64,000 nt of DNA from positions 1,408,001 through 1,472,000 of the forward strand of contig CAVQNG010000003.1 in NCBI GenBank assembly GCA_963713825.1, read 5' to 3'. The stretch comes from an uncultured Acidobacteriota bacterium. GTDB taxonomy: Bacteria > Acidobacteriota > Thermoanaerobaculia > Multivoradales > JAHEKO01. Below the pieces are notes generated by a model. The model worked only from the letters and a program-made list of their open reading frames with translations, had not been told where the DNA came from and did no database searches. Below are positions 14,967 to 31,102 of this stretch, in pieces (within the stretch, counting starts at the first letter, position 1; each line of letters starts with the position of its first letter). The position numbers were made by a program, and so were the translations under genes.

Positions 14967-15012
14967 GACAGAAAGCTCTCGGCGGAACCAGGAAGCCTCC
15001 GGGTTTCCGAGG

Positions 15013-15618
15013 CTAGTCGTCCTGTTCCATCTGGTGTTTGCGAATCGCCTGGACTTTGGCGCCGTACATCTCGTCCCAGCGCTTCATGATCTTCTCGAGC
15101 GCACGATCGAGCTTCTGCTCGTTCTTCTCGGGCTTCTTCTTGGCCATGGCTGCCGTGCCTATGCCGCGCCAAATCAATTTCTTCTCCTTCGCATCCCAAG
15201 CGTCGATGATGAGGGTGCCCTCATTGAAAGAGAAGTTCTCGAGGTTGCGCGTGCCGACGCCGCCGTCCCAATAGGAGCCCAGCGAGAAATCGGGGCCGTA
15301 GGTGTACTCGAGATCACTCAGGACGAGACGCAGGTTGCTCTGATCGGCGGTGTAGTAGGCGATATAGATGTCGGGATCGGCATCGACCTCTTCCATGCCT
15401 CCCTCTTTGATGTAGTTTCTGAGCCCGTTCACCACGCGCCGGTGCAGGGTCTCTGAGAAGTTCCGCAGATCCTCTCGAGTCTCCTTGAACTGGAAAGTCC
15501 TGTACTGGCTGAAAGCGGTAGCCCGGTCGTAGTCGACGTAGACCTTCTGGGCCAGGGCCGGCGTGGCCGTGATGACGGTGAAAACGACGAGCAGAATGAA
15601 CAGCCGATGAATCTTCAT
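15013..15618 (-). CDS. DUF4136 domain secreted protein
   Basis: Signal peptide; V.VDYD...FSQYRTF and EGTLIID..D...KLIWRG motifs. Confidence 0.8.
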   Translation of the reverse strand: MKIHRLFILLVVFTVITATPALAQKVYVDYDRATAFSQYRTFQFKETREDLRNFSETLHRRVVNGLRNYIKEGGMEEVDADPDIYIAYYTADQSNLRLVLSDLEYTYGPDFSLGSYWDGGVGTRNLENFSFNEGTLIIDAWDAKEKKLIWRGIGTAAMAKKKPEKNEQKLDRALEKIMKRWDEMYGAKVQAIRKHQMEQDD

Positions 15619-15774
15619 CGGCCGATTCTAGTGCATCCTGGGTGTGTCCCCTGCCATGAACCAATCCTTGGCTGACGACACCCTGGATTGGGCCATCCTG
15701 GAGTAGGACTCCCGGCCGGAATAGAGCCAAGATAGGATTCGAAATGGACCCGGAGGAACAGACCGGAGGCGAGC

Positions 15775-17163
15775 ATGCGAAAGATCCTGGTTCCCCTGAC
15801 ACGTAACCCCATCAGTCTTGCCGGCTCGGCCCTGATGCTGATCAGCGCCATCCTGTTCGTGAGCCTGATGCTGATCGAGTTCCTGGGGGCCAAGGGCAAC
15901 CCCTATCTGGGCATCATTACCTATTTGATCCTGCCAGCCGGTGGCCTGATCGGCTTCATCCTCGTCTTCTGGGGCATCCGACGGGAGCGGCGCCTTGCAC
16001 CGGAGGCGGCCTTCCCGGTCATCGATCTCAACAGCGAAGCGACTCGAAGACGCTTGATGATCCTGGTGCTGGTCGTGACCGTCGGGGCGGTGGTCCTCAC
16101 GGCCGCGATGTCTCAGGGCGTCCACGTCATGGAGAGCACCTCGTTCTGTGGCGAAACCTGCCACAGCGTCATGTCCCCCGAGTACATCGCTTACCAGCGC
16201 TCTCCACATGCGCGAGTCGCATGTGTTGAATGCCATGTCGGCGAGGGAACCAGCTGGTTCGTCCGCTCCAAGCTCAGTGGTGCGTGGCAGCTCGTCTCCA
16301 CCGCCCTGGACCTCTACGAGCGTCCTATTCCGACACCGGTGCATCATTTGCGACCCTCCGAAGGAACCTGCGAGGAATGCCACTGGCCGGAGAAGTTCTA
16401 TGGTGTCAGCCCCAAGATGATCACGAAGTTCTCCGACGACGAGGCCAATTCCGAGGTCAAGACGATTCTCCTGCTCAAAGTCGGTGGTGACGACTTCGGT
16501 GGAACCCAGGGTATTCACTGGCACATGGACCCCGACGTCGAGATCCGCTACCGGTCGGACGAGAAACGACGGACGATGTACGAAGTCGAGCTGCAAGTTG
16601 GTGACGATCCGGTGAAGCGATTCTTCAAGCAGACGGTGAAAGAAGACAACCCCGAGCTGATGGATTGGCGGGTCATGGATTGCGTCGACTGCCACAACCG
16701 TCCGACGCATGTCTACTACACCGCCGAAGAGGCGGTCGATCTGGCGCTCGAGCGGAAGTTCATCGCCAAGGATCTGCCGTTCGTCAGGCGCGAGGGGCTG
16801 AAGGCTGTCCGCGCCGAGTACGCCTCACACGAAGAAGCAGAACCAGGGATCTCAGCAGCGATCACCAGCTTCTACGAGTCCGAGTACCCGAGTCTGGCTT
16901 CGAGGCGCGCTGACGACATCCAAGAGGCCGGACGTGTCCTGGGCCGGCTCTACGCCAACAACGTCTTCCCGACCATGAAGATCGAGTGGGACACCTACCC
17001 GGACTTCAGTGGTCACTACAACTCGTTGGGCTGCAACCGCTGTCACGCCGGTGACCACGCCACGGAAGAGGGTGACGTGATCGATTCCGACTGCTCGATC
17101 TGCCACACCATCGTCGCCTGGGACGAAGCCAGCCCAGAGATTCTCGAGCTGATCCCGAAGTAG
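15775..17163 (+). CDS. Membrane-anchored multiheme cytochrome c, NapC/NirT-type (ImcH-like)
   Basis: Three N-terminal TM helices; heme motifs CGETCH, CVECH, CEECH, CVDCH, CNRCH, CSICH; GIHWH motif. Confidence 0.88.
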   Translation: MRKILVPLTRNPISLAGSALMLISAILFVSLMLIEFLGAKGNPYLGIITYLILPAGGLIGFILVFWGIRRERRLAPEAAFPVIDLNSEATRRRLMILVLVVTVGAVVLTAAMSQGVHVMESTSFCGETCHSVMSPEYIAYQRSPHARVACVECHVGEGTSWFVRSKLSGAWQLVSTALDLYERPIPTPVHHLRPSEGTCEECHWPEKFYGVSPKMITKFSDDEANSEVKTILLLKVGGDDFGGTQGIHWHMDPDVEIRYRSDEKRRTMYEVELQVGDDPVKRFFKQTVKEDNPELMDWRVMDCVDCHNRPTHVYYTAEEAVDLALERKFIAKDLPFVRREGLKAVRAEYASHEEAEPGISAAITSFYESEYPSLASRRADDIQEAGRVLGRLYANNVFPTMKIEWDTYPDFSGHYNSLGCNRCHAGDHATEEGDVIDSDCSICHTIVAWDEASPEILELIPK

Positions 17164-17291
17164 TCACTCCTGAAGCGGTTGTTGTCTTGGGGCCGAGGCC
17201 GGTCACGAAGCCCGAATGTGCGATCTTTGATAGATCGGGATGGCCGAGTCAGGCTATCCTCTGGCCGACAAGAAGAGAGGAACTTCCGAAG

Positions 17292-18356
17292 ATGAGAGTT
17301 GTCACCACCTCGGCAATGGCGGCGCTGATTGTGCTGGTGGGGTGCGTTTCCTATACGAGCTCTCCTGCGGCGCCTGCCCCAGATGCCGCCTTCGACGCTG
17401 TGGAGTTGCCCTCCCACCCTTCTGCCGAGTACGAGAAGCACGAAGTCGTCTTCAAGAATCGGATGGTGGACGAGGAAGAGAGCTCACTCTATCGAGTTCG
17501 CTACATTCGCTTTCCCTCCTATGGTGAAAACGGCCAGGAAGACAACCTGGTCACGGGCCGGTACTACGAGAGCAAGCGGCCGGGGAAGAAGCCTCTCGTC
17601 ATCATCGTACCGATCCCGGCGGGCCACACCTACCCGGCAGAGAAGATGACTGCCTACCTGAAGTCCCACAGCATGGGCGAGATCAACATCTTCAACATGA
17701 AGATCGAGAGGGACGTGATCGATTGGAACGGTTTGTCTGCTTCCGTTGACGAGGCAGCGTTCATGGAGCGACTGGAGAAGAGCGCCGAGCGGGAATGGAC
17801 GACCGTCATCGATATTCGCCGAACCCTCGACTGGGCGGAAGCCCGACCAGAGATCGACGCCCAGAGAATCGGCTTGATGGGCTTCAGCCATGGGGGAATC
17901 GTCGCGGCTGGAGTGGCAGTCCAGGAACCTCGACTAGCGGCCACTGTGCTGGTGATGGCCGGAGCGCTGCTTCATCAGCCCATGGTTCGTTGCCCTCTTG
18001 GACGAAGCGAGGGGATGAGATCGAAGGCGCTGTCGGAATTCGGCTGGACGGAAGAGGAGCTCGAAGCCCGGATCGAGGCCGAATTCAGCTATTTCGAGCC
18101 GGCGAACTTTCCGGGCAGGGTCGACCCTTCGAAGGTGTTGATCGTCGAAGCGGCGAAGGACGACTGCATTCCCGAGAGTGGGCGACAGGCGCTCTGGGAG
18201 ACCATGGGCCGCCCAGAGAGGATCCAGCTGAATTACAGGCACAAACAGGCCTTCCTCTCGATGACTCCGCTACGCCTCCTTTGGCTGCGACACCGAATCT
18301 GGGAGTTTCTGCAGCGCTCCCTCGAGATCGGGCCCCAGGCTGTGGCAGCCCTATAG
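17292..18356 (+). CDS. Alpha/beta hydrolase family lipoprotein
   Basis: Lipobox LVGC; RIGLMGFSHGG nucleophile elbow; ATG 17292 after GAGG. Confidence 0.75.
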   Translation: MRVVTTSAMAALIVLVGCVSYTSSPAAPAPDAAFDAVELPSHPSAEYEKHEVVFKNRMVDEEESSLYRVRYIRFPSYGENGQEDNLVTGRYYESKRPGKKPLVIIVPIPAGHTYPAEKMTAYLKSHSMGEINIFNMKIERDVIDWNGLSASVDEAAFMERLEKSAEREWTTVIDIRRTLDWAEARPEIDAQRIGLMGFSHGGIVAAGVAVQEPRLAATVLVMAGALLHQPMVRCPLGRSEGMRSKALSEFGWTEEELEARIEAEFSYFEPANFPGRVDPSKVLIVEAAKDDCIPESGRQALWETMGRPERIQLNYRHKQAFLSMTPLRLLWLRHRIWEFLQRSLEIGPQAVAAL

Positions 18357-18378
18357 AAGAAACTCGAGAGCGCGATCT

Positions 18379-19185
18379 CTATAGAGTCTCCCGAAGGGCT
18401 TCGAATTGGAACTGATGACGCCTGGTGAAAAGGCGCAAATAGCTGAGTAGAACCGCTCCCACGGTGCCGAGGGCAGTCGCCGAGGCAATCAGGAACATGA
18501 TGACGATCTGGTACTTGACGGCCTGGACGGGGGAGACCCCGGCGAGGAGTTGACCGGTCATCATCCCGGGCAGGCTGACGATCCCAACCACCGTCATGGA
18601 ATTGAGGATGGGGATCATCCCCGTGCGGGCGGCCTGACGGATCGCTGGAAGGGCGGCTTCCCACCGAGTGCCGCCAAGCGAGAGAAGCAACTCGACCTGA
18701 TCTCTGCCCTGGGTCAGCGTGTCGGTGAAACGCTCGAGCCCCAGGGAGATTCCTGTCAGAGTGTTGCCGAGGATCATTCCCAGCAACGGAATGGCGTATT
18801 GAGGCAGGTACCAGGGCTCGACGCGCAAGATCGCCCCCAGGGCAAGTCCAGCGATCACCCACGAGCTCACCAGAATCGAGAGAGTCGTGTCCACCCAGAT
18901 GCCCGGATAGCGGTGTGTCGTGCGCCGAACGGCGGCGATACCGGCGATGACTACCATAGCGAAGGCCAGCGCCAGAACGGGTGCCCAGTGGCGCAGTGAG
19001 AACACCTTCTGGAGCACCAGCCCGACAAGCAGAAGCTGCACAGTTGTTCTGAGCGACGCCACCAAGAGGCGCTTACCCAGGCCAAGGCGCAGCGCTACCG
19101 ACAGCATTCCGTTGAAGAGAATCAACAGGGTCGCAAGACCGACCTGGAGGTAGGAAAGCTCGAGGTACGAAGCGGCTTGACTCAT
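18379..19185 (-). CDS. fetB: Iron export ABC transporter permease FetB (YbbM/UPF0014)
   Basis: R..VQL..VG, IP..GM.LGN, GIVSLPGMMTGQLLAG.SP..AV.YQI. Confidence 0.9.
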   Translation of the reverse strand: MSQAASYLELSYLQVGLATLLILFNGMLSVALRLGLGKRLLVASLRTTVQLLLVGLVLQKVFSLRHWAPVLALAFAMVVIAGIAAVRRTTHRYPGIWVDTTLSILVSSWVIAGLALGAILRVEPWYLPQYAIPLLGMILGNTLTGISLGLERFTDTLTQGRDQVELLLSLGGTRWEAALPAIRQAARTGMIPILNSMTVVGIVSLPGMMTGQLLAGVSPVQAVKYQIVIMFLIASATALGTVGAVLLSYLRLFTRRHQFQFEALRETL

Positions 19186-19877
19186 GAGCTCTCCTCGAGT
19201 CGTCCGCGCGCGAGTTTCAGGGTCCGGGCGGCAACGCGCACGACTTGCTCGGGATCGTGGCTCACCCAGAGATAGGTTCGCCTGTCTGACGATGCCGCCT
19301 GCCAGGCCAGAACCAAGTCTTCGACGTTGGCGGCGGAGTCGCGGTCGAGTGCAGCGGTGGGCTCGTCCAGAAGCAGCACGGTCGGTTGTGCAAGGAAGGC
19401 TCTCAGCAAACCGACGATCTGTCGTTCTCCCCCTGAGAGATTGGCACCTTTCTTGGCGAGAAATTCCTCGCCGGCACCAAACGTCTCGAAGAGGTGGAGA
19501 GCTTCATCGCGAGGGAAGGGAACTTTGCTTCGAACCTGCAGGTCGAAGGGAATGCGAAGATTCTCCTCGACCGTTCCTGGCACCAGTGGGGACCCTTGCT
19601 GCAGGTAGGTTACCTGGCTCCGATAGCTCGGAATCTCAGTATCCGCAATGGGGTTCCCTCTCCAGAGAACCTCACCGCTATCGACCGGGTCCAGAAGCGC
19701 CAGGGCACGAAGGATCAAGCTCTTCCCTGACCCAGTGGGACCCACAAGCGCCAACCGATCTCCGGATTCCAGGTCCAGATTGAAGTCCTGGAAGAGCCAG
19801 CTGTCGCCACCAGGGTGACGCCGTCCCAGGTTTTTGGCGCTCAAGAGTGAGTCTCGAAGAATCATGGTGCCTGCCAC
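19182..19877 (-). CDS. fetA: ABC transporter ATP-binding protein (FetA/YbbL-like)
   Basis: GPTGSGKS, LSGGE, LLLDEPT, SHD; coupled to fetB. Confidence 0.82.
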   Translation of the reverse strand: MAGTMILRDSLLSAKNLGRRHPGGDSWLFQDFNLDLESGDRLALVGPTGSGKSLILRALALLDPVDSGEVLWRGNPIADTEIPSYRSQVTYLQQGSPLVPGTVEENLRIPFDLQVRSKVPFPRDEALHLFETFGAGEEFLAKKGANLSGGERQIVGLLRAFLAQPTVLLLDEPTAALDRDSAANVEDLVLAWQAASSDRRTYLWVSHDPEQVVRVAARTLKLARGRLEESS

Positions 19878-20047
19878 GCCACGAACAGTGAGAGTTCAGT
19901 CTCTCATGCCAGGAGCGGTAACCGGCACCATCGCGCCTTCAGTCGATGGGCCGCGGTAAGAGGCTTTCTCGCCATGAGTTGGACGGGTTGATCTGAAAAG
20001 GGGTGAGGTGCCCCCAGCGCGAGAAAGGAGATTTTGGACAGAGGGTG

Positions 20048-22135
20048 CTAGAGCTTTCGCAATAGGTCGACATGTGATCTCTGGCCCATGATCACGAGGT
20101 GATCGCCACGTTGGACAGTCTCGCTAGGGCCGGGCACGAGTTCGACCTGATCGGCCGAGCCTGAATCATGAGAAGGTCGCCGGATCAAGAGAATCTGGAC
20201 GTGATACCGGTTTCGAACATCCAGCTCACCAATCGTTCTGCCGACGAATTCTCCGGGTGCTTCTATCTCCGCGATGAGATGTCCCCCGTCCAGAACTACC
20301 TCCTCCGTTGCTGAAGCAGCAACTCCACTGCTGAGACTCGTCACCATGTCCCGCTTCATGAGTTCTCGACTGTAAGCATCGATGAGGTGCCGGCGATTGA
20401 CGACACCGACAAGGTGGCTCCGATCGGCGGAGTCGACGACGGGTAGTTCCTCGCGATCCTTGCCACCGAAAATACGCATGACCCTGTCGAGGTCCTGGTC
20501 TGGAGTCACCCTTGGAACATCCGCCCGAGCCAGGTCACCAACAACGGAGATCTCTGAGAAGGTATCTGCGTTGAGGAGAGCGTGCCGGAGCTCCGAAAAG
20601 GCAATTACACCCTGAAGGTTCCCGCTGCTGTCCGTGGTGTAGTAATACGAACGAGGGCTATCTGCGAATTGTTCAAGAAGCTCCGGTATGGGAGTGTCGG
20701 CTGGGAGCGTTGCCAAGTCGTCATCCATGACCTCTTGGACGCGCAGCGACCGTAAGACATTGACCTCCCGCCCGCGAAACAGATCGGCTCCCCGCCGATA
20801 TAGCTTCATGGTGTAGATCGACTCTCTCTTGAGGCGACTCGACACCAGGCTGGCGATAATGCACGAAGCCATCAATGGAACTATGAGTTTGTAGTCTGAT
20901 GTCAACTCGAAGATGATCAGAATCGCGGTGATCGGAGCGTGAGTGGTGCCCGCCACGACGGCACCCATCCCAACCAGGGCATAGGCCCCAGAGCTTGCAG
21001 TCGCGCCCGGATACAACTGGTGAGCAAGATTGCCGAGGAAACCTCCTGACATCGCACCCAGGAACAGGGATGGGGCGAAAATCCCTCCCGAGCCACCAGA
21101 TCCCAGCGTGACACTGGTGGCGAACAGCTTTGCTACAACTAGAACCGCCAGAAGACCGAGCGTCAGCTCTCCGGTGAGCGCCTGATTGATGGTTTCGTAG
21201 CCTACGCCGAGGACCTGGGGGAATAGAAGGCCGATGGCGCCCACCATCAATCCACCGAAGGCTGGCAGTAGCCAGGGCTTTACAGGCAAGGACTCCATGA
21301 GATCCTCGACGCCATAGAGAACCCGAATGAACACTTGCGCCGCGACGGCTGCCAGCAACCCCAGGAGCAAGTAGAGGGGGAGTTCCCAGGCACTTTCCAT
21401 TCTGTAGGTGGGCACAACGAAGGCCGGGAAGTCGCCCAAGAAATGCCGCGAGACGACCGTTGCCATCACCGATGAGATGACAATGGGGCTGAACTGCGAG
21501 ACACCGAAGTCTCCGAGGATGATCTCGACAGCAAAAAGGGCGCCGGCCACCGGAGCGTTGAAGGTAGCGGCGATTCCAGCAGCTGCGCCGCAGCCCGCAA
21601 GAGTCCTGAGCCGCCGTCCTGAGATGCGGAGCCACTGGCCGATCGTCGACCCCAGGGCGGCACCGATTTGGACGATCGGACCCTCACGACCAACCGATCC
21701 ACCAGTGCCGATACAAATAGCGGACGCCACGCTCTTGACCGCGACTAGGCGCGCCCGGATAAATCCCGATCGCAGGGCCACCGCCTCCATGACCTCAGGA
21801 ACACCATGTCCCTTGGCCTCGCGGGCGAGAAAGTAGACAAGCGGCCCAACGATCAACCCCCCAACTGCTGGGGTGAGCAACCTCCACAACCATGGGTGGG
21901 CCTCAACGAGCGCCAGATCGTATGACCAACTACCCCAGGCCCCTCTCTGAACTACTTTGATGAGAAAGCGAAAGGCTACTGCGCCTAGGCCTCCCAAGGC
22001 GCCAATGATGACAGCGAGCACCACCATGAACGTGTGCTCGGCCATCTTGGCCCTGTTCAGAAGGTAACCGAGGAGGAGCCCGGCACCACGCGGTTGGCTT
22101 CTCGACTCGATGTCGGGCCGGAGGGTGCCGGTCAC
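20048..22135 (-). CDS. ClC chloride channel/transporter with CBS pair and C-terminal TrkA-C (RCK_C) domain
   Basis: GHGVPE, GREGP and GIFAP signatures; CBS repeats; FVGRTIGELDVR..GD.L C-terminus. Confidence 0.92.
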   Translation of the reverse strand: MTGTLRPDIESRSQPRGAGLLLGYLLNRAKMAEHTFMVVLAVIIGALGGLGAVAFRFLIKVVQRGAWGSWSYDLALVEAHPWLWRLLTPAVGGLIVGPLVYFLAREAKGHGVPEVMEAVALRSGFIRARLVAVKSVASAICIGTGGSVGREGPIVQIGAALGSTIGQWLRISGRRLRTLAGCGAAAGIAATFNAPVAGALFAVEIILGDFGVSQFSPIVISSVMATVVSRHFLGDFPAFVVPTYRMESAWELPLYLLLGLLAAVAAQVFIRVLYGVEDLMESLPVKPWLLPAFGGLMVGAIGLLFPQVLGVGYETINQALTGELTLGLLAVLVVAKLFATSVTLGSGGSGGIFAPSLFLGAMSGGFLGNLAHQLYPGATASSGAYALVGMGAVVAGTTHAPITAILIIFELTSDYKLIVPLMASCIIASLVSSRLKRESIYTMKLYRRGADLFRGREVNVLRSLRVQEVMDDDLATLPADTPIPELLEQFADSPRSYYYTTDSSGNLQGVIAFSELRHALLNADTFSEISVVGDLARADVPRVTPDQDLDRVMRIFGGKDREELPVVDSADRSHLVGVVNRRHLIDAYSRELMKRDMVTSLSSGVAASATEEVVLDGGHLIAEIEAPGEFVGRTIGELDVRNRYHVQILLIRRPSHDSGSADQVELVPGPSETVQRGDHLVIMGQRSHVDLLRKL

Positions 22136-22168
22136 TCGGTCTGCCCTCTCCTCCCTCCGTGAAGGCGC

Positions 22169-22708
22169 TCAATCCACAATGAGGCCGCCTTTTACGACCA
22201 TGTTGTTGAGCCGGGTCGTCAGACTTTGTAGGAGCTCGTGGGCGATGACGGGATCTGCGCGGACCGCGGCTCGCGCATCCTCGAGGTCCTCTAAAGGGGG
22301 TTCCATCTCGCGGAGAAGCTTGCCGTGGTCGACTCGAGCGATGGCCGTCAGGCGGCTCTCGGCGAGGTCCAATTCCTCTTCGGCTCTGTCGAGTTTGTCG
22401 AGATTGAAGAACAGAAGGGCGTTGTAGGAGTGCTCCCGCGCTTCCAGCAAGGGAAGGTAGAAATCGAGGAGATGTCGCAACGATCGGTCGGCACCCCTCA
22501 AGAGCACGGCAGCCTCCTCGGGGTTTGATCCCAAAACCGGGACGGCTGCTTCAACAGCAGATGCCGCCCTTTCCACTTCCTCTCGCAGCGCGTGCCCCGC
22601 CGATCGCTCCAAGATCGGCTGCCAGTCGACGTCGGGTTGATCACATGCGCCAGCCACCCAAAGCACCATCAAGGGAAGGTACTTCCACCAACTTGTTGAG
22701 GCTTTCAT
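22169..22708 (-). CDS. Hypothetical helical lipoprotein
   Basis: ATG 22708 after GGAG; lipobox AGAC; amphipathic helices; lies between kup and clc in one orientation. Confidence 0.65.
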   Translation of the reverse strand: MKASTSWWKYLPLMVLWVAGACDQPDVDWQPILERSAGHALREEVERAASAVEAAVPVLGSNPEEAAVLLRGADRSLRHLLDFYLPLLEAREHSYNALLFFNLDKLDRAEEELDLAESRLTAIARVDHGKLLREMEPPLEDLEDARAAVRADPVIAHELLQSLTTRLNNMVVKGGLIVD

Positions 22709-22727
22709 CTCGGGTCTCCCTTCGTCC

Positions 22728-24704
22728 TCAGATCTCGACTTGCAACCCCAGTTCCACGACCTGTCCTGGAGAGATACCAAAGTGGAGCGTCGGCCCTTGC
22801 GCGTTTCTCGAAACCAGAGCAAAGAAGTGCTTTCGCCACTGGGACATACCAGGCTTCTTGGTCACGATCAACGTCTCTCGACCGAGGTAGACGGAAATCC
22901 TGCCGGTTCTTTCGAGGATCCCCTCTGTCCGAAGTAGGGTGAGGACCTCAGTGAGATTCGGGTGTTCCATGTAGCCCCAATGAGATGCGACACGGAGAAA
23001 TCCGGCTTGCAGCTCGGTGACTTCGAGTCGCTCGGCCGGGAGCAACCGCGGTACCTCGTCGGTCAGCATGGTGACGATCAGCACCTGGTTGTGGAGGACC
23101 TGATTGTGTTTGATGTTGTGCAGAAGAGATCTCGGGACACCTTTGGTATTGGAGTCCATGAAAACGGCGGTTCCTTGAACCCGACAAATCGAATGATGAG
23201 CCAGGCTCTCGAGGAACTGTTCAGCGGAGACACGGGCCGTGGTGAGCCGTTCAGCGAGCAGGGTGCGTCCTCGTTTCCAGGTCGTCATCAGCACGTAGAC
23301 GATGACCGCAACCACCAGTGGAAACCATCCTCCTTGTGGGATCTTGACGAGATTGGCGCCAAAGAACCCAAGGTCGACGACGAGCAGCAGCGCCGTCAAG
23401 GAGGTGGCGCTGACCAGGCCCCAGCCCCAGACCCGCCGTGAGCAGACGAATGCCAGGAGTGTTGTTACCACCATCGTGGTGGTCACGGCGACTCCATATG
23501 CGCCGGCGAGATTGCTGGAGGATCGGAAGCCGAGGACCAGCCCAACGGTAGCGATCAGCAGTACCCAGTTAACCAGAGGAACGTAGACCTGGCCGATCTG
23601 GTGCGGCGAAGAGTGGCGGACCTCGATACGCGGTAGAAACCCGAGGCGCAACGCTTGCTTGGTGAGCGAAAAGGCACCGGATATCACGGCCTGCGATGCG
23701 ATCACAGTCGCAGCCGTGGCAAGTATCAGGAGCGGATAAAGCAACCACTCCGGAGCCAGCAAGTAGAACGGGTTGCTTACGGCATCTGGATTTCTCAGCA
23801 GCAATGCTCCCTGTCCGAAGTAGTTCAGCATCAAGGCTGGGAAGACGACCCAAAACCAGGCGAGGCGGATAGGCTCGAGACCGAAGTGCCCCATGTCAGC
23901 GTAGAGCGCCTCGCCACCCGTGACGACGAGGAACACCGCTCCAAGTACCAGAAAACCGGCCAGGCCATTGGCCATGAAGAAATGAGCGGCGTGAATTGGA
24001 TTGATCGCGAGAAGCACCCGCGGCGTTTCGATCAGAGAGACTGCACCGAGGGTGGCGATGCAGAGGAACCATAGGAGGGTCACCGGCCCGAAGAGCGCGC
24101 CAACGGCCCCGGTGCCCTTGCGCTGCAGCAGAAACAACCCAATCAAGATCCCGATCGCGAGTGGAATCACGACATGGCTTAGCGCTGGTGTGGCGACCTC
24201 GAGTCCCTCAACGGCGCTCAGAACCGAGATTGCCGGAGTGATCATGCCGTCGCCGTAGAGCAGGGCAGAGCCGAAGAGTCCCAGCCCCACGAGGACTGTC
24301 CGACTACGGGACGGGGAAACGAGGCGGGGTGCGACCAGGGTCAGGAGCGCGAGAATCCCTCCCTCACCGCGATTGTCCGCCCGCATCACGTACAGCAGGT
24401 ACTTGAGGGAGATGACGAGTACAAGCGACCATGCAATCAGCGAGAGAACGCCGAAGATGTTCGCTTCGGTGGCAGCCATTCGCCAACTACCAGAGAAGCA
24501 CTCGCGGAGAGCATAGAGAGGGCTGGTCCCGATGTCGCCATAGACCACTCCAAGTGCTCCCAGGGCCAGAACCCACCGCCTGTCCCGCTTGCCAGGTCGC
24601 TGCTCCGACTCTGGCGGTCTCGGTGCAACTCCCTGAGGTTCTGATTCGGGCGAACCACCGCGGTCTGGCTCATGCTGTTCTGGTTGGCTGGGCTCCGCAC
24701 TCAT
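22728..24704 (-). CDS. kup: KUP family potassium uptake transporter
   Basis: ALGVVYGDIGTSPLY, NRGEGG, GDGMITPAISVLSAVEG, TGGEALYADMGHFG. Confidence 0.96.
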   Translation of the reverse strand: MSAEPSQPEQHEPDRGGSPESEPQGVAPRPPESEQRPGKRDRRWVLALGALGVVYGDIGTSPLYALRECFSGSWRMAATEANIFGVLSLIAWSLVLVISLKYLLYVMRADNRGEGGILALLTLVAPRLVSPSRSRTVLVGLGLFGSALLYGDGMITPAISVLSAVEGLEVATPALSHVVIPLAIGILIGLFLLQRKGTGAVGALFGPVTLLWFLCIATLGAVSLIETPRVLLAINPIHAAHFFMANGLAGFLVLGAVFLVVTGGEALYADMGHFGLEPIRLAWFWVVFPALMLNYFGQGALLLRNPDAVSNPFYLLAPEWLLYPLLILATAATVIASQAVISGAFSLTKQALRLGFLPRIEVRHSSPHQIGQVYVPLVNWVLLIATVGLVLGFRSSSNLAGAYGVAVTTTMVVTTLLAFVCSRRVWGWGLVSATSLTALLLVVDLGFFGANLVKIPQGGWFPLVVAVIVYVLMTTWKRGRTLLAERLTTARVSAEQFLESLAHHSICRVQGTAVFMDSNTKGVPRSLLHNIKHNQVLHNQVLIVTMLTDEVPRLLPAERLEVTELQAGFLRVASHWGYMEHPNLTEVLTLLRTEGILERTGRISVYLGRETLIVTKKPGMSQWRKHFFALVSRNAQGPTLHFGISPGQVVELGLQVEI

Positions 24705-24758
24705 AGTGGCGATCGCTGAGCTGATGGTCTTCAGGGACTCGACTGGGAGGGGAAGCGC

Positions 24759-25196
24759 TCAATGTCTCTCGGGGAGTGTCGCCACTCGATGAGAGAGGGT
24801 CTCCTCGACGGTCTCCATCAGGTCGACCAACTCAAAGGGTTTGTCGATGACTACGGCACCAAGCTCTGCGGCTCTCCGGTGGATCTGATCGTCCCCAAAG
24901 GCCGTGATGAGAATCGTGGGAGGGAGGAGGCGACTTACCCGCTGCAGTCCCTGCATGACCTCCAGGCCCGTCATGTGGGGCATCCGAACGTCGGACACGA
25001 GCAAGTCGTATTTACTTCCCGGGCCGGACTGCGTCGAAAGCTGGTACAAGAGATCAGGCCCGTTGCAGGCCTCTGCCACTTGAAAACCTCTCTTTTTCAG
25101 TGCCCAGACCAAGAGACGTCTCATCTCCTTGTTGTCTTCGGCGACTAGAACTCTCAAGGTCTCTCCGGGGTATCTCTCTGCTCGTGCTTCTGTCAC
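24759..25196 (-). CDS. Single-domain response regulator (receiver only)
   Basis: VLVAED, LVSDVRMP, ITAF, KPF. Start placed at GTG 25196 behind a GGGAGG RBS and downstream of the sigma54 promoter. Confidence 0.85.
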   Translation of the reverse strand: MTEARAERYPGETLRVLVAEDNKEMRRLLVWALKKRGFQVAEACNGPDLLYQLSTQSGPGSKYDLLVSDVRMPHMTGLEVMQGLQRVSRLLPPTILITAFGDDQIHRRAAELGAVVIDKPFELVDLMETVEETLSHRVATLPERH

Positions 25197-25238
25197 GGTG
25201 ATCCTCCCAAGGTTCGTAGGTCGAACAGAGGTGATCAG

Positions 25239-25254
25239 AGCAGGATCGATGCCA
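25239..25254 (-). promoter_or_regulatory. sigma54 (-24/-12) promoter of the receiver-kup-clc operon
   Basis: TGGCATCGATCCTGCT (GG-N10-GC), about 40 nt upstream of the GTG start. Confidence 0.7.
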
Positions 25255-25378
25255 TGTCCGAGATGCGTTCGTTCACGCGCCAACAGTCATCTCGTGGAGG
25301 GCCGCACAAGCTGCTGCGACGGGTTCCTATCGTCGATACTCGCTTCCCGACAATCGGCGTTGTTCTTATCCCCCGTCT

Positions 25379-25412
25379 GGGTCAAAATGCCACAGTGGGG
25401 CAGATATCCTCG
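25379..25412. promoter_or_regulatory. Putative enhancer (UAS) for the adjacent sigma54 activator
   Basis: GGGTCAAAATGCCAC and GGGGCAGATATCCTC, two pseudo-palindromes with an 18-bp period; matches 28448-28481. Confidence 0.6.
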
Positions 25413-25423
25413 GGGTTGAATGG

Positions 25424-26863
25424 ATGAGACTCGCGACGAAATTCGTTGTGGTCTTCGTCGCTGGGACAGTGACGGTTCTGCTGGTCTTCGGACTCTTTGC
25501 AGTTGACCGAGAGCGCACTCTCTTCGAGAAGGATGTTGAGCGAGACACTCGGATAGTTGGCCGATCTATCGGGGTCGCGATAGCCGATGTTTGGAGCGAT
25601 CAGGGTGAGGAGACGGCGCAGAAGCTGATTGAGGACCTCAATGAAGAAGAGCCGGATGTTGTTGTGCGGTGGGTCCCACCGAGGGAGATCCCCGAGGTTC
25701 TTGGCGCTTTGGCATCACCGGTCGACTTCAGAGAACGATTGTCACGCGGCGAAGTGATCTCGCTCAGGCGCCCGGAGGGTGCGAAGCAAGCGGTCTTGGC
25801 CTTTGTTCCAGTCGAGAAGGATGGCCAGCTAATAGGTGTACTCGAAGTCAGTGAGTCACTTCATTCGGCTGATGCTTACACCAGCGCGACGATAGTGAGA
25901 TTCGTATCATTGGCCGCTGCTATCTCCCTGTTGGCTGCCTGTTTGGCAATACCGATTGGCATCAGGTTCGTGGGCTCGCCCCTCAACAAGCTGGTCGCAA
26001 AGACTCGACGTGCCGGTCGAGGAGACTTCTCAGGTGAACTCGAGATTGGCGCCAAGGATGAGCTTGGTGAGCTCGCCGAGGCGGTGAACTCCATGTGTTC
26101 GGACCTGACGCGTTCCCAGCGACGAATCGGCGAAGAGTCCGAGGCTCGAATCGCGGCCCTTGAGCAACTTCGCCACGAAGATCGTCTGAAGACAGTCGGC
26201 AGGCTGGCATCGGGAGTTGCACACGAACTGGGAACGCCGTTGAACGTGATCGGTGGGCGAGCCGGCTTGATTGAAGAGGGCGAGCTCGACGACACTGAGA
26301 TCGCCGACGCGGCGCGAATCATCAAGCAGCAAGCGGACACCATGACAGCGATCGTGCGCCAGCTCCTGGATTTCGCACGACGACGAGCTCCTGAGAAATC
26401 ACGGGTGGATCTCGCACCCGTCGTGGAACAGTCACTCGAATTGCTTCGGCCCATGGCCAGGAAACAGGGTGTCGGCCTCGCCTTTGAAGCGGGGCATGAG
26501 TCTCTGGAGGCGGATGTCGATGCCGGCCAGCTGCAGCAGGTGATGACGAATCTGGTATTGAACGCGATCCAGGCGAGCTCTTCTGGCGACGAAGTTGTGG
26601 TCACGCTCGAAGCAACCGGAGGTGGCCCCGCGAGGTCTACCTGCCTGGTGGTGCAAGACCAGGGACAGGGAATCTCGCCAGAGGATTTTCCCCACATCTT
26701 CGAGCCCTTCTTTACTACAAAGGAGACCGGAGAGGGCACAGGGCTCGGTTTGTCGCTGGTGTACGGCATAGTGCAAGAACACGGCGGAAGGGTGGAGGTG
26801 ATCAGTAGTCTCGCCAAAGGAACGCGATTCGAGGTCTATTTGCCAAGAGAGGGAGAGCCATGA
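25424..26863 (+). CDS. Membrane sensor histidine kinase (HAMP-HisKA-HATPase)
   Basis: Two TM helices, DELGELA HAMP, AHELGTPL H-box, N-box NLVLNAIQA, DQGQGI, FFTTK, GTGLGL. Confidence 0.95.
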   Translation: MRLATKFVVVFVAGTVTVLLVFGLFAVDRERTLFEKDVERDTRIVGRSIGVAIADVWSDQGEETAQKLIEDLNEEEPDVVVRWVPPREIPEVLGALASPVDFRERLSRGEVISLRRPEGAKQAVLAFVPVEKDGQLIGVLEVSESLHSADAYTSATIVRFVSLAAAISLLAACLAIPIGIRFVGSPLNKLVAKTRRAGRGDFSGELEIGAKDELGELAEAVNSMCSDLTRSQRRIGEESEARIAALEQLRHEDRLKTVGRLASGVAHELGTPLNVIGGRAGLIEEGELDDTEIADAARIIKQQADTMTAIVRQLLDFARRRAPEKSRVDLAPVVEQSLELLRPMARKQGVGLAFEAGHESLEADVDAGQLQQVMTNLVLNAIQASSSGDEVVVTLEATGGGPARSTCLVVQDQGQGISPEDFPHIFEPFFTTKETGEGTGLGLSLVYGIVQEHGGRVEVISSLAKGTRFEVYLPREGEP

Positions 26864-28239
26864 AACGGCTGGTGCTCGTAGTCGACGACGAAGAGTCGAT
26901 GTGTTCGTTGATTCAAGACGACCTCCAGAGGCGGGGACTCGATGTCATCGTGGCAACCGAGCCAGAGACTGCGATTCAGCGACTGGAAAGCATGGACATT
27001 GACACGGTCATTACAGACCTGATCATGCCCTCCATGAGTGGCATAGAACTGTGCAGGAGCGTAGTTGACAGTCATCCCGATGTGCCGGTCATTGTCCTGA
27101 CTGCCTTTGGAAGTCTCGAGACTGCCACCGAGGCCATCCGCGCTGGTGCCTTCGACTTCGTCACCAAGCCTGTCGAAAGGGACCTTCTAGCGATCGCTGT
27201 CGAGAGGGCGTTGCGCCATCGGGAGCTTCAGGAGAAGCTGCTGCAGCTGAGTGAAGAGGTTGAACGTTCACGCCGACTGGGTGATCTCCTGGGCGAGAGC
27301 GAACCCATGCGCAAGCTGTTCGATCAGATCGGTCGAGTCGCCGACTCTGAGGCAACGATTCTCGTTTCCGGGGAGAGCGGAACTGGCAAGGAGCTGGTGG
27401 CGAGAGCTCTGCATGAGGGCAGCCGGAGGGAGAGAGGTTCGCTGGTGTCAGTGAATTGCGCTGCCCTCCCGGAGAACCTGCTGGAGAGTGAGCTCTTCGG
27501 CCATACGCGCGGAGCGTTCAGTGGTGCCGAGACTGCGCGAAAGGGCCTGTTTCTGAAAGCAGACGGAGGCACCCTTTACCTGGACGAGATCAGCGAGCTC
27601 CCATTGTCCTTGCAGCCGAAACTACTACGGGCCCTCGAAGAGAGGCGAGTTCGGCCCGTCGGAAGCGACCGTGAGGTGTCTTTTGATGCGAGGGTCATCG
27701 CCGCAACGAATCGGAACCTGGAGGGGCTGGTAGAAGAGGGCGAGTTTCGAAAGGACCTTTACTATCGGATCAATGTGATCGAGCTTGAAGTGCCGCGACT
27801 TCGGGCACGGGGAAACGACGTCCTGTTGCTGGCACAGCACTTTGTTGGAGAACTCGCTGAGAAGACCGGGAAGGACGTCGTCGGCCTATCTGAACGAGTG
27901 GCCGAGCTCCTCTTGTCCTACGACTGGCCTGGAAATGTCCGAGAGCTGCGTAATGCCATGGAAAGAGCTGTAGCCCTTACGCGAACCGAACAGATTTCAC
28001 TTGACGAGCTTCCCGAGAGCATTCGCCAACATCGGTCCAAGAGGCTCATTCTGGACCAAGGAGAGGGAGAGGAACTGCTGCCGCTCGAGGAGGTCGAAAA
28101 ACGCTACATTCTCCACGCACTGCAGGCGCTGGGCGGGAACAAGACGCTCACAGCTCAAGCTCTCGGTTGCGATCGGAAGACGCTCTACCGAAAACTGGGT
28201 TCTTATGGGATATTGCTCGGCTCCGATTCAGGCAAGTAG
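26860..28239 (+). CDS. sigma54-dependent response regulator (NtrC/ZraR-type enhancer-binding protein)
   Basis: Receiver domain, GESGTGKE, ESELFGH..GAFSGA, LDEI, WPGNVREL, Fis-type HTH (TLYRKL). Confidence 0.95.
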   Translation: MKRLVLVVDDEESMCSLIQDDLQRRGLDVIVATEPETAIQRLESMDIDTVITDLIMPSMSGIELCRSVVDSHPDVPVIVLTAFGSLETATEAIRAGAFDFVTKPVERDLLAIAVERALRHRELQEKLLQLSEEVERSRRLGDLLGESEPMRKLFDQIGRVADSEATILVSGESGTGKELVARALHEGSRRERGSLVSVNCAALPENLLESELFGHTRGAFSGAETARKGLFLKADGGTLYLDEISELPLSLQPKLLRALEERRVRPVGSDREVSFDARVIAATNRNLEGLVEEGEFRKDLYYRINVIELEVPRLRARGNDVLLLAQHFVGELAEKTGKDVVGLSERVAELLLSYDWPGNVRELRNAMERAVALTRTEQISLDELPESIRQHRSKRLILDQGEGEELLPLEEVEKRYILHALQALGGNKTLTAQALGCDRKTLYRKLGSYGILLGSDSGK

Positions 28240-28345
28240 TAGACCTTCTTGCCTGTATGCGGAGTCTCGTTTGAAGGAGGGCCCCAGAACGGGAGAAGCC
28301 CAAGGGGAGGTACAGCGTCACCCGTCCCGCGGGCCCTCAGTCTCG
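28229..28345 (-). ncRNA. Candidate sigma54-dependent small RNA (~115 nt)
   Basis: Lies directly downstream of a consensus sigma54 promoter. Long stem GAGGGCCC/GGGCCCTC plus GGACGGG/CCCGUUC encloses CCUCCCC; 3' hairpin CAGGCAAG/CUUGCCUG; no credible ORF. Confidence 0.5.
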
Positions 28346-28355
28346 TCTTCGGTAG

Positions 28356-28371
28356 AGCAAATCCAGTGCCA
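28356..28371 (-). promoter_or_regulatory. Consensus sigma54 promoter
   Basis: TGGCACTGGATTTGCT, a perfect TGGCAC-N5-TTGCW. Confidence 0.8.
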
Positions 28372-28447
28372 TTTGTCGTTTGCTCTAAACGGCCGGTTCT
28401 CCTTGGTTGAGCAGGCCCGGTTTCAGCATCCCTGAGGTCCCTACTCT

Positions 28448-28481
28448 CGAGGCAGAACGCCCCGCTGTTGCCTTCTGCCCC
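28448..28481. promoter_or_regulatory. Second putative enhancer (UAS)
   Basis: Minus-strand GGGGCAGAAGGCAAC and GGGGCGTTCTGCCTC, 18-bp period; 23/34 identical to 25379-25412 by manual alignment. Confidence 0.6.
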
Positions 28482-28664
28482 GTCCAGTAGTGCCGAGGGA
28501 CATCACCTCAGCTGCTTGAACAGGTCCTCAGAGCGGTTGGAACCGCTGGTGCTCTCTTGCCACCTAGCACCTGCACAGCAGCTAGGTTCAAGACCTGCAG
28601 GGACTACTGCCGGACAGCAGTGCTGGAGACCCGCGTATCTATCTGAAAATAAAGGAGATGAAGA

Positions 28665-28741
28665 TGGCGCACCCGTAGGGATTCGAACCCCAAACCTCCT
28701 GATCCGTAGTCAGGTGCTCTATCCAGTTGAGCTACGGGTGC
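28665..28741 (-). tRNA. tRNA-Arg(ACG)
   Basis: GCACCCGTAGCTCAACTGGATAGAGCACCTGACTACGGATCAGG...GGTTCGAATCC..CGGGTGCGCCA; 77 nt, encoded CCA. Confidence 0.97.
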
Positions 28742-28833
28742 GCAAAGAACTGCGAGAGAGGGATTCTAGGGCAACCACCGAGCCGGGGCAAGCCGCCGAC
28801 GTACCCCAGGACCCCAAGACCTCGGGACCCGAG

Positions 28834-30996
28834 CTATTCAGCCATCTGCATTTCCAACGCCCAGCTCAGGAACGCCCACTGGTCGGCGATCTCCTCGATC
28901 TGCATCCAGGTAGGTTTGCCGGCACCGTGACCGGCGCGGGTCTCCACCCGGATGAGCAGAGGATTCTCGCAACCCTGGTCGTGCTGCAGGGCTGCGGCGT
29001 ACTTGAAGCTGTGCCAGGGCACCACCCGATTGTCGTGATCCGCGGTCGTCACCAGCGTCGGCGGATAGCAGGTGCCCTCTTGCGTGTTGTGGTAGGGCGA
29101 GTAGGCCAGTAGAGCCTCGAATTCCTCTTCGTTCTCGCTCAACCCGTAGTCGCTGGACCACTGCCGGGCGTTGGCGCTCGCGGTGTGGTAGCGCAGCATA
29201 TCCATGACTCCGACTGCCGGCAGCGCGGCACCGAAGAGATCGGGCCTCTGGTTCATGACGGCTCCGACGAGGAGTCCGCCGTTCGAGCCACCGCGAATCG
29301 CCAGCTTGTCCTTCGAGGTGTAGCCGTTGTCGATCAACCACTCGGCAGCGGCGATGAAGTCGTCGAAGACGTTCTGCTTTTGCAGCTTGGTGCCAGCCTG
29401 GTGCCACTCTTCGCCGTACTCACCTCCACCGCGCAGGTTGGCGACGGCCAGCACGCCACCCATCTCCATCCAGACGATCCGCCGTGGGCTGTAGTAAGGG
29501 GTGCGAGAGACGTTGAAGCCTCCATAGCCGTAGAGCAGCGTCGGATTGGTGCCGTCGAGCTCGAGGTCCTCGCGGTGAACGATGAACATCGGCACGCGGG
29601 TCCCGTCCTTACTCGCGTAGAAGACCTGGGTGGTGACGAAAGGACTCAAGTCCACGTTCACCTTGGCCTCGCGGAACAGCGTGCTCTCACCGCTCTCGAT
29701 ATCGTAGTGGTAGATGCGATCCGGAGTCGTGTAGCCGGTGAAGGTGTAAAACGTCTCGGGGTCGTCGAGCTTGCCACCAAAGCCGCCGACACTTCCGATA
29801 CCGGGCAGCTCGACCTCACGGGTCGGTTGGCCCTCCAGATCGAAGACCTTCACCACCGACTTGGCATCCTGGAGGTACTGAACGATCAGATGACCGCCGG
29901 CCAGTGAGGCTCCCTCGATGGTCTCCTCGGCCTCCGGTACGATCTCCTGCCAGTTCTCGGGTGACGGGTTTGTGAGGTCCACGCCGACGATTCGGTACTT
30001 GGGAGCGTCGTGGGTTGTGGAGAAGTAGAAGATGTCGTCCTTGTTGCCGAGAAGGTCGTAAAGAGCGTCCCACTCGTCGAGTAGCTTGACCACCGGCGCG
30101 TCGGGCTTGCCGAGCTCCTGGTAGTAGACGCCATTGGAGTCGTAGCCGTCGAAGACGCCGACAATCAAGTAGCGGCCGTCGTCCGTCACCTCTGCATAGG
30201 GATTGCGAGTCTCGTGGTCGGTGATGGAGTAGACGCTTACGTCCTCGGCCTGCGGCGTTCCAATCCGGTGGTAGTAGACCGAGACCTGCTGCGAATCGTC
30301 CGCTTCGCCACTGTCATTCTCGGGATAGCGGCTGTAGTAGAGGCCTGCACCATCCGCTGACCATGAGGCGCCTGAGAACTTGATGCCGTCGAGGCGGTCC
30401 TCGAGATCTTCGCCAGTCTCGACGTCGCGGACCTTCCAGTGGCGCCAATCGGAGCCCGCTTCCGAGATGCTGTAGGCGATCCGACTGCCGTCGGGGCTCA
30501 CTTCGAAGCTGGTCATCGAGGCAGTCCGATCGTCACTGAAGGTGTTGGGGTCGATCAGAGCTCGGGGCTCAGCTTCCAGGGTGTCGATGACGTACAAGAC
30601 ATCCTGATCCTGCAAGCCGTCGTTGCGCCGATAGAAGTAGCTTCCTCCCTGTTTGACCGGGGTTGTGAAGCGCTCGTAGTTCCAGACTTCGGTCAGACGT
30701 TGGTTGATCGTGTCCCGGGCCGGAATGGCCTCGAGGAAGGGTTGGGTAACTTCGTTCTCCGCTGCCACCCACTGCGCCGTCTGATCCCCGTCCACATCCT
30801 CGAGCCAGCGATACGGATCGGCAACTTCTACCCCATGATAGTTGTCGATGTGGTCGACGCGCTCGGTTTCGGGGTAGGTCACTGGAATCGTGGGGCCTTT
30901 GGCAGATTCGGGCTCGGACTTGGCGCATCCCGACAGGGCGATGACAAAGAGAAGGCCGGTCAGAAGCAGGGAACGCTGTAAACGGGCAAGCATCAT
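28834..30996 (-). CDS. Prolyl oligopeptidase (S9A), lipoprotein
   Basis: Lipobox LSGC; VADPYRWLE, GGSNGGLL, DHDNRV, AGHG catalytic triad. Confidence 0.95.
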   Translation of the reverse strand: MMLARLQRSLLLTGLLFVIALSGCAKSEPESAKGPTIPVTYPETERVDHIDNYHGVEVADPYRWLEDVDGDQTAQWVAAENEVTQPFLEAIPARDTINQRLTEVWNYERFTTPVKQGGSYFYRRNDGLQDQDVLYVIDTLEAEPRALIDPNTFSDDRTASMTSFEVSPDGSRIAYSISEAGSDWRHWKVRDVETGEDLEDRLDGIKFSGASWSADGAGLYYSRYPENDSGEADDSQQVSVYYHRIGTPQAEDVSVYSITDHETRNPYAEVTDDGRYLIVGVFDGYDSNGVYYQELGKPDAPVVKLLDEWDALYDLLGNKDDIFYFSTTHDAPKYRIVGVDLTNPSPENWQEIVPEAEETIEGASLAGGHLIVQYLQDAKSVVKVFDLEGQPTREVELPGIGSVGGFGGKLDDPETFYTFTGYTTPDRIYHYDIESGESTLFREAKVNVDLSPFVTTQVFYASKDGTRVPMFIVHREDLELDGTNPTLLYGYGGFNVSRTPYYSPRRIVWMEMGGVLAVANLRGGGEYGEEWHQAGTKLQKQNVFDDFIAAAEWLIDNGYTSKDKLAIRGGSNGGLLVGAVMNQRPDLFGAALPAVGVMDMLRYHTASANARQWSSDYGLSENEEEFEALLAYSPYHNTQEGTCYPPTLVTTADHDNRVVPWHSFKYAAALQHDQGCENPLLIRVETRAGHGAGKPTWMQIEEIADQWAFLSWALEMQMAE

Positions 30997-31102
30997 GGAT
31001 AACTCCTTGGAGTTTCGTGGCAGTGGCTGTTTCTAAGGAAGGGGACGAGCTCGGTGAAACTGTCCGGCCGAACTGGCCAACCGAGACTACCATCCGATTC
31101 CC

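Follow-up and report, generated by a model that had tools for sequence, protein, structure and literature searches.

An orphan sigma-54 promoter facing the gene of its neighbouring activator may yield a non-coding RNA in an uncultured Acidobacteriota bacterium

What does a consensus sigma-54 promoter do when it points at the end of an activator gene and has no gene of its own to transcribe? This question is raised by a 64,000-nucleotide (nt) stretch of the genome of an uncultured Acidobacteriota bacterium (contig CAVQNG010000003.1, positions 1,408,001 to 1,472,000; hereafter the window, to which all unprefixed positions refer), where a minus-strand promoter lies in the intergenic spacer adjoining the plus-strand gene of an NtrC-type sigma-54 activator (26860-28239). 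A preliminary description of this locus had proposed that the orphan promoter drives a structured small RNA as an output of the adjacent two-component system. Here, we analysed the promoter, its candidate regulator, its predicted transcript and its conservation. The promoter appears to be a genuine target of the neighbouring activator, and we give slightly less than an even chance to the reading that it yields a non-coding or antisense RNA under control of that activator.

A perfect promoter with matching activator-binding sites

The promoter TGGCACTGGATTTGCT (28356-28371, minus strand) agrees with TGGCAC-N5-TTGCT at 11 of 11 consensus positions and has the exact spacing. It is the single occurrence of TGGCAC-N5-TTGCW with zero mismatches in the window, in which 0.03 such motifs would be expected by chance, at least one being found in 3 of 100 shuffles. 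Sigma-54 itself is encoded in the genome (rpoN, G000:C1:402783-403259; Sigma54_DBD, 217 bits). Taking C28357 as position -12 sets the predicted transcription start (+1) near 28345, at a distance of 106 nt from the TAG stop codon of the activator gene (28237-28239), which is read from the opposite strand.

Upstream of this promoter, two predicted activator-binding sites (upstream activating sequences, UAS) of 15 base pairs (bp) each, set 18 bp apart, occupy 28449-28481, from -136 to -104 relative to +1; on the minus strand they read GGGGCAGAAGGCAAC (28481-28467), a 3-nt spacer and GGGGCGTTCTGCCTC (28463-28449). Their motif, GGGGCR-N3-TGMCYC, was derived from six regulatory regions of four genomes, which were compared in pairs and yielded one recurring 15-mer. 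L150 and L045, two of the activator loci described below, have it as their best shared word, as do both regions of the family member G017, and the orphan region took part in neither of these comparisons. Tandem sites with this 18-bp spacing also precede the response-regulator promoters of the window and of G017. A leave-out matrix made from 7 sites, none of them from the orphan region, scores 16.9 bits at the orphan UAS, a value reached by 6 of 20,000 random 190-nt windows of the genome (P ~0.0003, which is somewhat optimistic because the 7 training sites were picked by hand after pairwise comparisons that included the orphan region). The other 14 perfect promoters of the genome score at most 10.4 bits with this matrix, and the strict binding motif occurs 7 times in 5.4 Mb. 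This match is the main new evidence, at the level of sequence, that the promoter is a real target of its neighbour, and on these grounds we take the promoter to be genuine and activator-controlled. The preliminary description had put forward a perfect sigma-54 promoter, a tandem enhancer about 105-135 bp upstream of +1 and a gap of about 105 nt to the activator stop codon, all of which our analysis bears out.

The surroundings of the promoter hold further sequence features. A perfect 9-nt inverted repeat (28353-28361 / 28379-28387) has an arm that overlaps the -12 element; its second arm lies a short way upstream of the -24 element. A 14-nt inverted repeat (28182-28195 / 28345-28358), complementary at 13 of 14 positions, joins the region coding for the helix-turn-helix (HTH) of the activator with the promoter start region, and would close a large 3' structure on the operon mRNA. 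On the far side of the UAS, a weak plus-strand sigma-54-like motif, TGGAACCGCTGGTGCT (28538-28553, 9/11), is aimed at a transfer RNA (tRNA) gene, has no open reading frame (ORF) after it and is probably due to chance.

No coding-like gene downstream and a strand-biased predicted RNA

We found no ORF of at least 60 amino acids starting within 350 nt of the promoter. The sole ORF downstream is 57 amino acids long, with a GTG start 24 nt after the predicted +1 (28321-28148), and its GC content by codon position is 0.53/0.55/0.57, as against ~0.65/0.42/0.66 in real genes nearby. Low-stringency tblastn searches of the spacer with six neighbouring proteins gave nothing above noise that would point to a lost protein gene.

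The RNA read from this promoter, folded from 28345 to 28200, reaches -66.2 kcal/mol (z -5.2), and 0 of 200 shuffles fold as well. Its 5' main hairpin (28277-28338, minus strand) pairs 28338-28322 with 28277-28293 and bears a 13-nt loop, GUACCUCCCCUUG (28301-28313), within which CCUCCCC lies at 28304-28310. As minus-strand RNA this hairpin folds at -41.2 kcal/mol (z -3.96; 0 of 200 shuffles as good), and as plus-strand RNA at -32.1 kcal/mol (z -1.45; 18 of 200 as good); this difference of 9 kcal/mol, together with the G-U pairs of the stem, favours the strand that the orphan promoter would transcribe. A second hairpin (28222-28263, minus strand), built on an inverted repeat with an 8-bp core, covers the activator stop codon and folds at -14.8 kcal/mol on the minus strand (z -3.7) and -12.9 kcal/mol on the plus strand (z -2.7). 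The absence of a plausible protein gene, the GC stem (28277-28293 with 28321-28338) enclosing CCUCCCC and the 8-bp hairpin over the activator stop codon had likewise been described earlier, and were recovered here.

An Rfam scan at expectation values (E) of up to 10 returned only tRNA and chance matches. The best match on the hairpin was mir-326, with 23.7 bits compared to a gathering score of 66, so that the family search suggested in the preliminary description yielded no family. When the loop was paired with the start regions of six local genes by RNAduplex, energies ranged from -19.9 to -29.9 kcal/mol, all within the background (-21.8, standard deviation 4.5), and this comparison is uninformative. 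The stretch is present in 20 public sequencing runs from 13 studies of sediment and salt marsh, one of which is an RNA run (5% of words). Over 25400-31000 that run placed a clean contig of 182 nt within the oligopeptidase gene and none over 28018-28578, a result without bearing on expression.

A proposed mechanism

We propose that the kinase phosphorylates the activator, which would switch on the response-regulator/Kup promoter on the far side of the operon. The phosphorylated activator would also bind 28449-28481 and open the orphan promoter, which would then fire toward the 3' end of the activator's own gene. Its product would be an untranslated RNA, the first ~75 nt of which would form a very stable hairpin showing CCUCCCC in its loop. 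Were transcription to stop after the main hairpin, a small RNA of ~75 nt would result; read-through would instead give an antisense RNA covering the 3' hairpin and final codons of the kinase-activator mRNA. Such an RNA could act in trans as an anti-Shine-Dalgarno regulator, or in cis as antisense negative feedback on the activator operon.

As no U-tract is present, the hairpins, Rho or processing would have to define the 3' end. Rho is the probable agent, the antisense RNA being C-rich owing to the positive plus-strand GC skew of the activator gene; both Rho and Hfq are encoded in the genome. Canonical terminators are barely enriched in this region (18, against 12.8 +/- 4.1 in shuffles).

The convergent layout, with +1 lying 106 nt from the activator stop codon, would allow for a cis-antisense overlap. 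A particular form of this idea is an antisense brake, in which the activator-driven convergent promoter would limit the response through pairing or transcription collision at the 3' end of the activator's own mRNA; we regard this form as unlikely. Under it, ribosome-binding sites might in addition come under trans control by the CCUCCCC loop. Among the papers listed by a literature search, judged by titles and abstract openings, none describes a sigma-54-dependent antisense autoregulator of its own enhancer-binding protein.

The preliminary claim of a small-RNA output thus stands in part. That the promoter is an output of the adjacent system is supported by its perfect sequence, by rpoN, by a UAS matching the motif of orthologous loci, by the lack of a downstream protein gene and by a main stem favoured on minus-strand RNA. 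The discrete, stable RNA of ~110-120 nt that had been envisaged fares less well, there being no terminator, no Rfam match and no homologue in 40 relatives or 299 further genomes.

Conservation and alternative explanations

What weighs against an RNA product of this promoter, besides the optimism of the P value given above, is the 3' end of the predicted transcript, the ability of both hairpins to fold on the other strand, the layout of related loci, the absence of the spacer from other genomes and its position in variable DNA. At the 3' end, no U-tract follows either hairpin, their tails not being U-rich (a caveat already made in the preliminary description), and a terminator scan of the minus strand over 27800-28900 found no intrinsic terminator.

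We collected activator loci from 45 genomes of the family (this one included), genome contigs and metagenome contigs. Among the 44 other family genomes, only G017 holds a clear activator orthologue, all other best matches having at most 48% identity. Its proteins share 72% (activator), 48% (kinase), 73% (Kup) and 49% (response regulator) identity with those of the window. Beyond G017, the next-best activators reach 62% and 58%, and then at most 55%. The module of G017 runs from Kup to the response regulator and a sigma-54 promoter, TGGCACTGAAGCTGCA, with kinase and activator on the other strand; this promoter lies on the response-regulator strand ~600 nt upstream of that gene, with a 148-amino-acid ORF between. 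At G017, the only close orthologous locus among them, no minus-strand promoter lies behind the activator gene. Here (L208, G017:C77, 8575-9574), a binding site 26 nt after the activator stop codon is followed by a weak plus-strand sigma-54 motif (8712-8727, 8/11) and then by an operon for an extracytoplasmic function (ECF) sigma factor and its anti-sigma factor, which suggests a different second output of the same system. This ECF sigma factor has no orthologue in the genome studied here (best identity 31%).

More distant loci show a related arrangement. L150 (62% identity), L045 (58%) and L047 (52%) carry a sigma-54-type motif ~100-115 nt after the activator stop codon, which is directed outward, away from the activator gene, and has a response-regulator gene ahead of it. 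The regulator of L045 is 48% identical to that of the window, and, as in the window, a sigma-54-type motif stands ahead of the response-regulator gene in L045 and L150. In all, 190 activator loci were examined, of which 144 (one from G006) were usable, and 46 were dropped for a match on the wrong strand, an unreached C-terminus or fewer than 300 nt of downstream sequence. Within 450 nt downstream, 21 of the 144 carry a same-strand sigma-54 motif (at least 10/11), while a convergent motif is found at 3: the window locus, L048 and L078. The L048 motif, which stands at the same distance from the stop codon, was rejected as a homologue, as it lies inside a 702-amino-acid ORF.

A DNA search of 40 relatives found no homologue of the spacer, matching only the tRNA and, in G017, the activator 3' end. 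A search of 299 other genomes of the order also found none; in 7 of them, matches of 25-42 nt (E 7e-4 to 1e-2) were at chance level. Most genomes of the order lack the module as a whole, and G017 alone has it. The spacer is unique in its own genome (no second copy by blastn). We also considered the spacer as a duplicate of the response-regulator promoter region or of the G017 regions, and rejected this, since nothing apart from the 17-nt binding site exceeded shuffles. Judged by these searches, the unit is so far found in one species. The orthologue comparison suggested earlier thus gave a divided result: the binding site is kept in G017, whereas the promoter and stem are not. The preliminary description had named such non-conservation as evidence against its proposal; it is seen at a single close locus, in a comparison of low power, as the orthologous response-regulator upstream regions themselves align no better than shuffles.

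Lastly, an 8.8-kb segment (19855-28659) holding the ClC, Kup, response-regulator, kinase and activator genes and the orphan promoter is missing from the same-genus genomes G003 and G004. Both share its flanks (15012-19854 at 83-85% identity, and 28660 onward), with ~1.4 kb between these flanks instead of 8.8 kb.

The main rival explanation is that the promoter is a stranded relic, which we consider possible though less likely than not. According to this explanation, inversion of, or a cut through, an ancestral unit of activator gene, binding site, promoter and target at the border of the variable segment would have left the promoter and sites behind. These may still be active, yielding a transcript without selected function, and the anti-Shine-Dalgarno hairpin would be a leftover 5' leader. 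This would account for the outward-facing downstream site that L045, L150 and L047 keep in front of a response-regulator gene, for the binding site and weak outward promoter before an ECF sigma operon in G017, the sigma factor of which has no orthologue here, and for the prevalence of same-strand over convergent promoters (21 against 3 of 144 loci). The location of the unit at the border of a segment absent from same-genus genomes, and the failure to find a similar unit in 40 relatives or 299 genomes of the order, point the same way. However, the promoter still matches at 11 of 11 positions, better than the module's own response-regulator promoter, and both tandem sites are intact. Furthermore, hairpin stability is specific to the strand that this promoter would transcribe, the spacer contains no remnant of the neighbouring proteins, and beyond the 17-nt binding site there is no alignable homology to the region downstream of the G017 activator. 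DNA contigs of near-identical strains from two other studies differ from the spacer at 2 of 415 and 0 of 213 positions, a rate similar to that of adjacent coding DNA (11 of 1868); the spacer is nearly unchanged, but these counts are too small to weigh.

A second explanation is that the hairpins form the terminator of the kinase-activator operon, the sigma-54 site being non-productive, either as a closed-complex roadblock or without any consequence. Both hairpins indeed fold on the plus strand too, directly after the stop codon, and could serve the operon in this way; the second of them could be the 3' hairpin of the kinase-activator mRNA. Intergenic sigma-54 sites without a suitably oriented gene are described in E. 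coli, including 8 'outside antisense' sites (PMC4591121). The main hairpin, unlike on the minus strand, is no better than shuffles on the plus strand (z -1.45, 18/200), and a matching tandem UAS at enhancer distance would be unexpected for a non-productive site. We therefore judge this explanation to be quite unlikely.

It is very improbable that the promoter drives a small protein from the 57-amino-acid GTG ORF, which exists and starts close to +1 but has no codon-position GC pattern, no clear Shine-Dalgarno sequence, a start codon within the strongest stem and two thirds of its length antisense to coding sequence. A chance consensus match without function is hardly credible either: about 5 of the 15 perfect matches in the genome are expected from base composition, but this motif is intergenic, stands beside an activator gene and has a matching tandem UAS at the right distance.

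Comparison with known systems

An ORF-less sigma-54 promoter beside the gene of its activator is an established design, from which the convergent orientation and the non-conservation of the orphan unit set it apart. CrcZ is encoded behind cbrB, NrsZ and CrcZ are oriented in the same direction as their activator genes, and pxr is likewise co-oriented with nla19. The closest parallel in layout is described for Pxr, an RNA of ~100 nt with multiple stems and a C-rich composition, the published probe of which implies a CCCCCCACCCC stretch; its gene, located downstream of nla19, which encodes a sigma-54 response regulator, is served by a sigma-54 promoter and an enhancer site of its own and is conserved across a suborder (PMC5568312). 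Like pxr, the orphan unit occupies the spacer immediately after an NtrC-type regulator gene, with its own sigma-54 promoter and enhancer site, and the Myxococcus origin of Pxr is matched by the nearest named relatives of the window activator, which are Myxococcota. Unlike Pxr, the orphan unit is convergent with the activator gene, lacks a terminator and is found in one species only. We detected no relation between the two by sequence or covariance model (Rfam, E up to 10, where the membership of Pxr in Rfam is unconfirmed).

In Desulfovibrio vulgaris, non-coding RNAs lie downstream of the activator genes DVU0653 and DVU0679 (PMC4641369), and NrsZ, located behind ntrBC, is induced by NtrB/C (PMC4253122). 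These RNAs and CrcZ resemble the orphan unit in the pairing of one activator with an adjacent ORF-less sigma-54 promoter and a post-transcriptional output. They are conserved and experimentally detected, whereas the orphan RNA is a prediction; unlike NrsZ and CrcZ, it would be convergent and would overlap the activator 3' end if longer than ~110 nt. Sigma-54 transcripts antisense to neighbouring genes have been discussed for E. coli (PMC4591121). These cases, and the excludon-type and cis-antisense RNAs of Listeria, share with the orphan unit a promoter reading into a convergent operon, the expression of which could thereby be lowered. The orphan unit would differ in that its antisense promoter is driven by the very activator that it opposes.

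If the RNA is made, the locus would represent another two-component sigma-54 system with both a protein output, namely the response regulator and Kup, and an RNA output. We know of no earlier case of a sigma-54 RNA gene convergent with its activator gene, and such a gene, if real, would provide a simple system in which to test how antisense feedback acts on an enhancer-binding protein. If only a relic, the promoter would be an unremarkable product of rearrangement beside a tRNA gene. The analysis also provides a usable binding motif, GGGGCR-N3-TGMCYC in tandem with 18-bp spacing, for an uncharacterised activator family. The link of this family to Kup holds for the genome studied here and for G017; the loci L045 and L150 showed the downstream response-regulator gene alone.

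The activator module and its variable segment

The activator consists of a receiver domain, an AAA+ sigma-54 interaction domain and a Fis-type HTH according to Pfam, and its translation contains the GAFSGA loop. Its gene overlaps by 4 nt with that of the histidine kinase (25424-26863, plus strand; HAMP, HisKA and HATPase_c). On the minus strand, a single-domain response regulator (24759-25196) is the conserved sigma-54 target of the module, and its gene is followed by that of the Kup K+ transporter (22728-24704); a ClC channel gene lies at 20048-22135. The response-regulator gene has its own sigma-54-type promoter, TGGCATCGATCCTGCT (25239-25254, minus strand), followed by the Shine-Dalgarno sequence GGGAGGA (25208-25202) and GTG 25196, which is most likely the start codon rather than TTG 25283. 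The response-regulator gene thus emerges as the conserved output of the system; Kup comes after it both here and in G017. The tandem binding sites of this promoter (25379-25411; reverse complement GGGTCAAAATGCCAC, 3 nt, GGGGCAGATATCCTC) are only 13-45 nt from the kinase start codon and may therefore also autoregulate the kinase-activator operon.

Taken together, the 8.8-kb segment looks like an acquired ion-homeostasis module under sigma-54 control. GC content at third codon positions is 0.64-0.70 in its genes, compared to 0.80 in the prolyl oligopeptidase gene further right. The segment abuts the 3' end of a tRNA-Arg gene (ACG; 28665-28741, minus strand), which forms its right-hand edge. No att-like direct repeat of at least 10 nt connects the tRNA 3' end with the other border, and there is no integrase among the Pfam-annotated ORFs of the segment, although no search aimed at integrases was made.

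Other ORF-less sigma-54 promoters in the genome

Eight of the 15 perfect promoters in the genome are followed, after 30-141 nt, by the start of an ORF of at least 146 amino acids; in most of these cases a purine-rich stretch resembling a Shine-Dalgarno sequence precedes the start codon. A further 4 stand at or inside the start of a long ORF. The remaining 3, the orphan promoter included, lack a coding-like ORF; the other two are on contig C25. ORF-less consensus sigma-54 promoters thus recur in this sediment lineage, and sigma-54-driven non-coding RNAs with C-rich motifs as a feature of the lineage raise the prior for the orphan unit. Neither C25 unit has an Rfam match.

The first of them, a conserved ORF-less sigma-54 unit of ~120 nt (G000:C25:925953-926087, promoter 926072), is kept by 4 of the 5 same-genus genomes and recurs in another genus (G009). 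Its promoter and a CCUACCGAGCA box are invariant; it also has a CCUCCC hairpin and a U-rich tail, and the hairpin shows one compensatory pair change, with both sides altered in G009. On sequence grounds this unit appears to be a good small-RNA candidate in its own right, and its covariance model (R1) detects one significant copy in the genome.

The C25 family resembles the orphan unit in its perfect promoter with a near-identical spacer (GGGAT, against TGGAT in the orphan), in GGUGACG followed by ACCUCCC at the hairpin, and in the lack of an ORF. It differs in its U-rich tail and in not lying beside an activator gene. We rejected the orphan unit as a paralogue, as the best R1 matches had E values of 0.68 and 1.3 (at most 2.4 bits) and local alignment gave P 0.067. 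Within the last codons of the activator gene, the antisense strand at 28198-28222 resembles the 5' box of the C25 family (CCGAGCAA..CCCAUA.GAACCC), a resemblance that may be due to chance (covariance-model E 1.3).

The second unit (G000:C25:945239-945350, promoter 945335) is conserved in 2 of 5 same-genus genomes, and consists of a very C-rich stretch and a GC hairpin with a UUCG loop, followed by ~46-nt tandem repeats.

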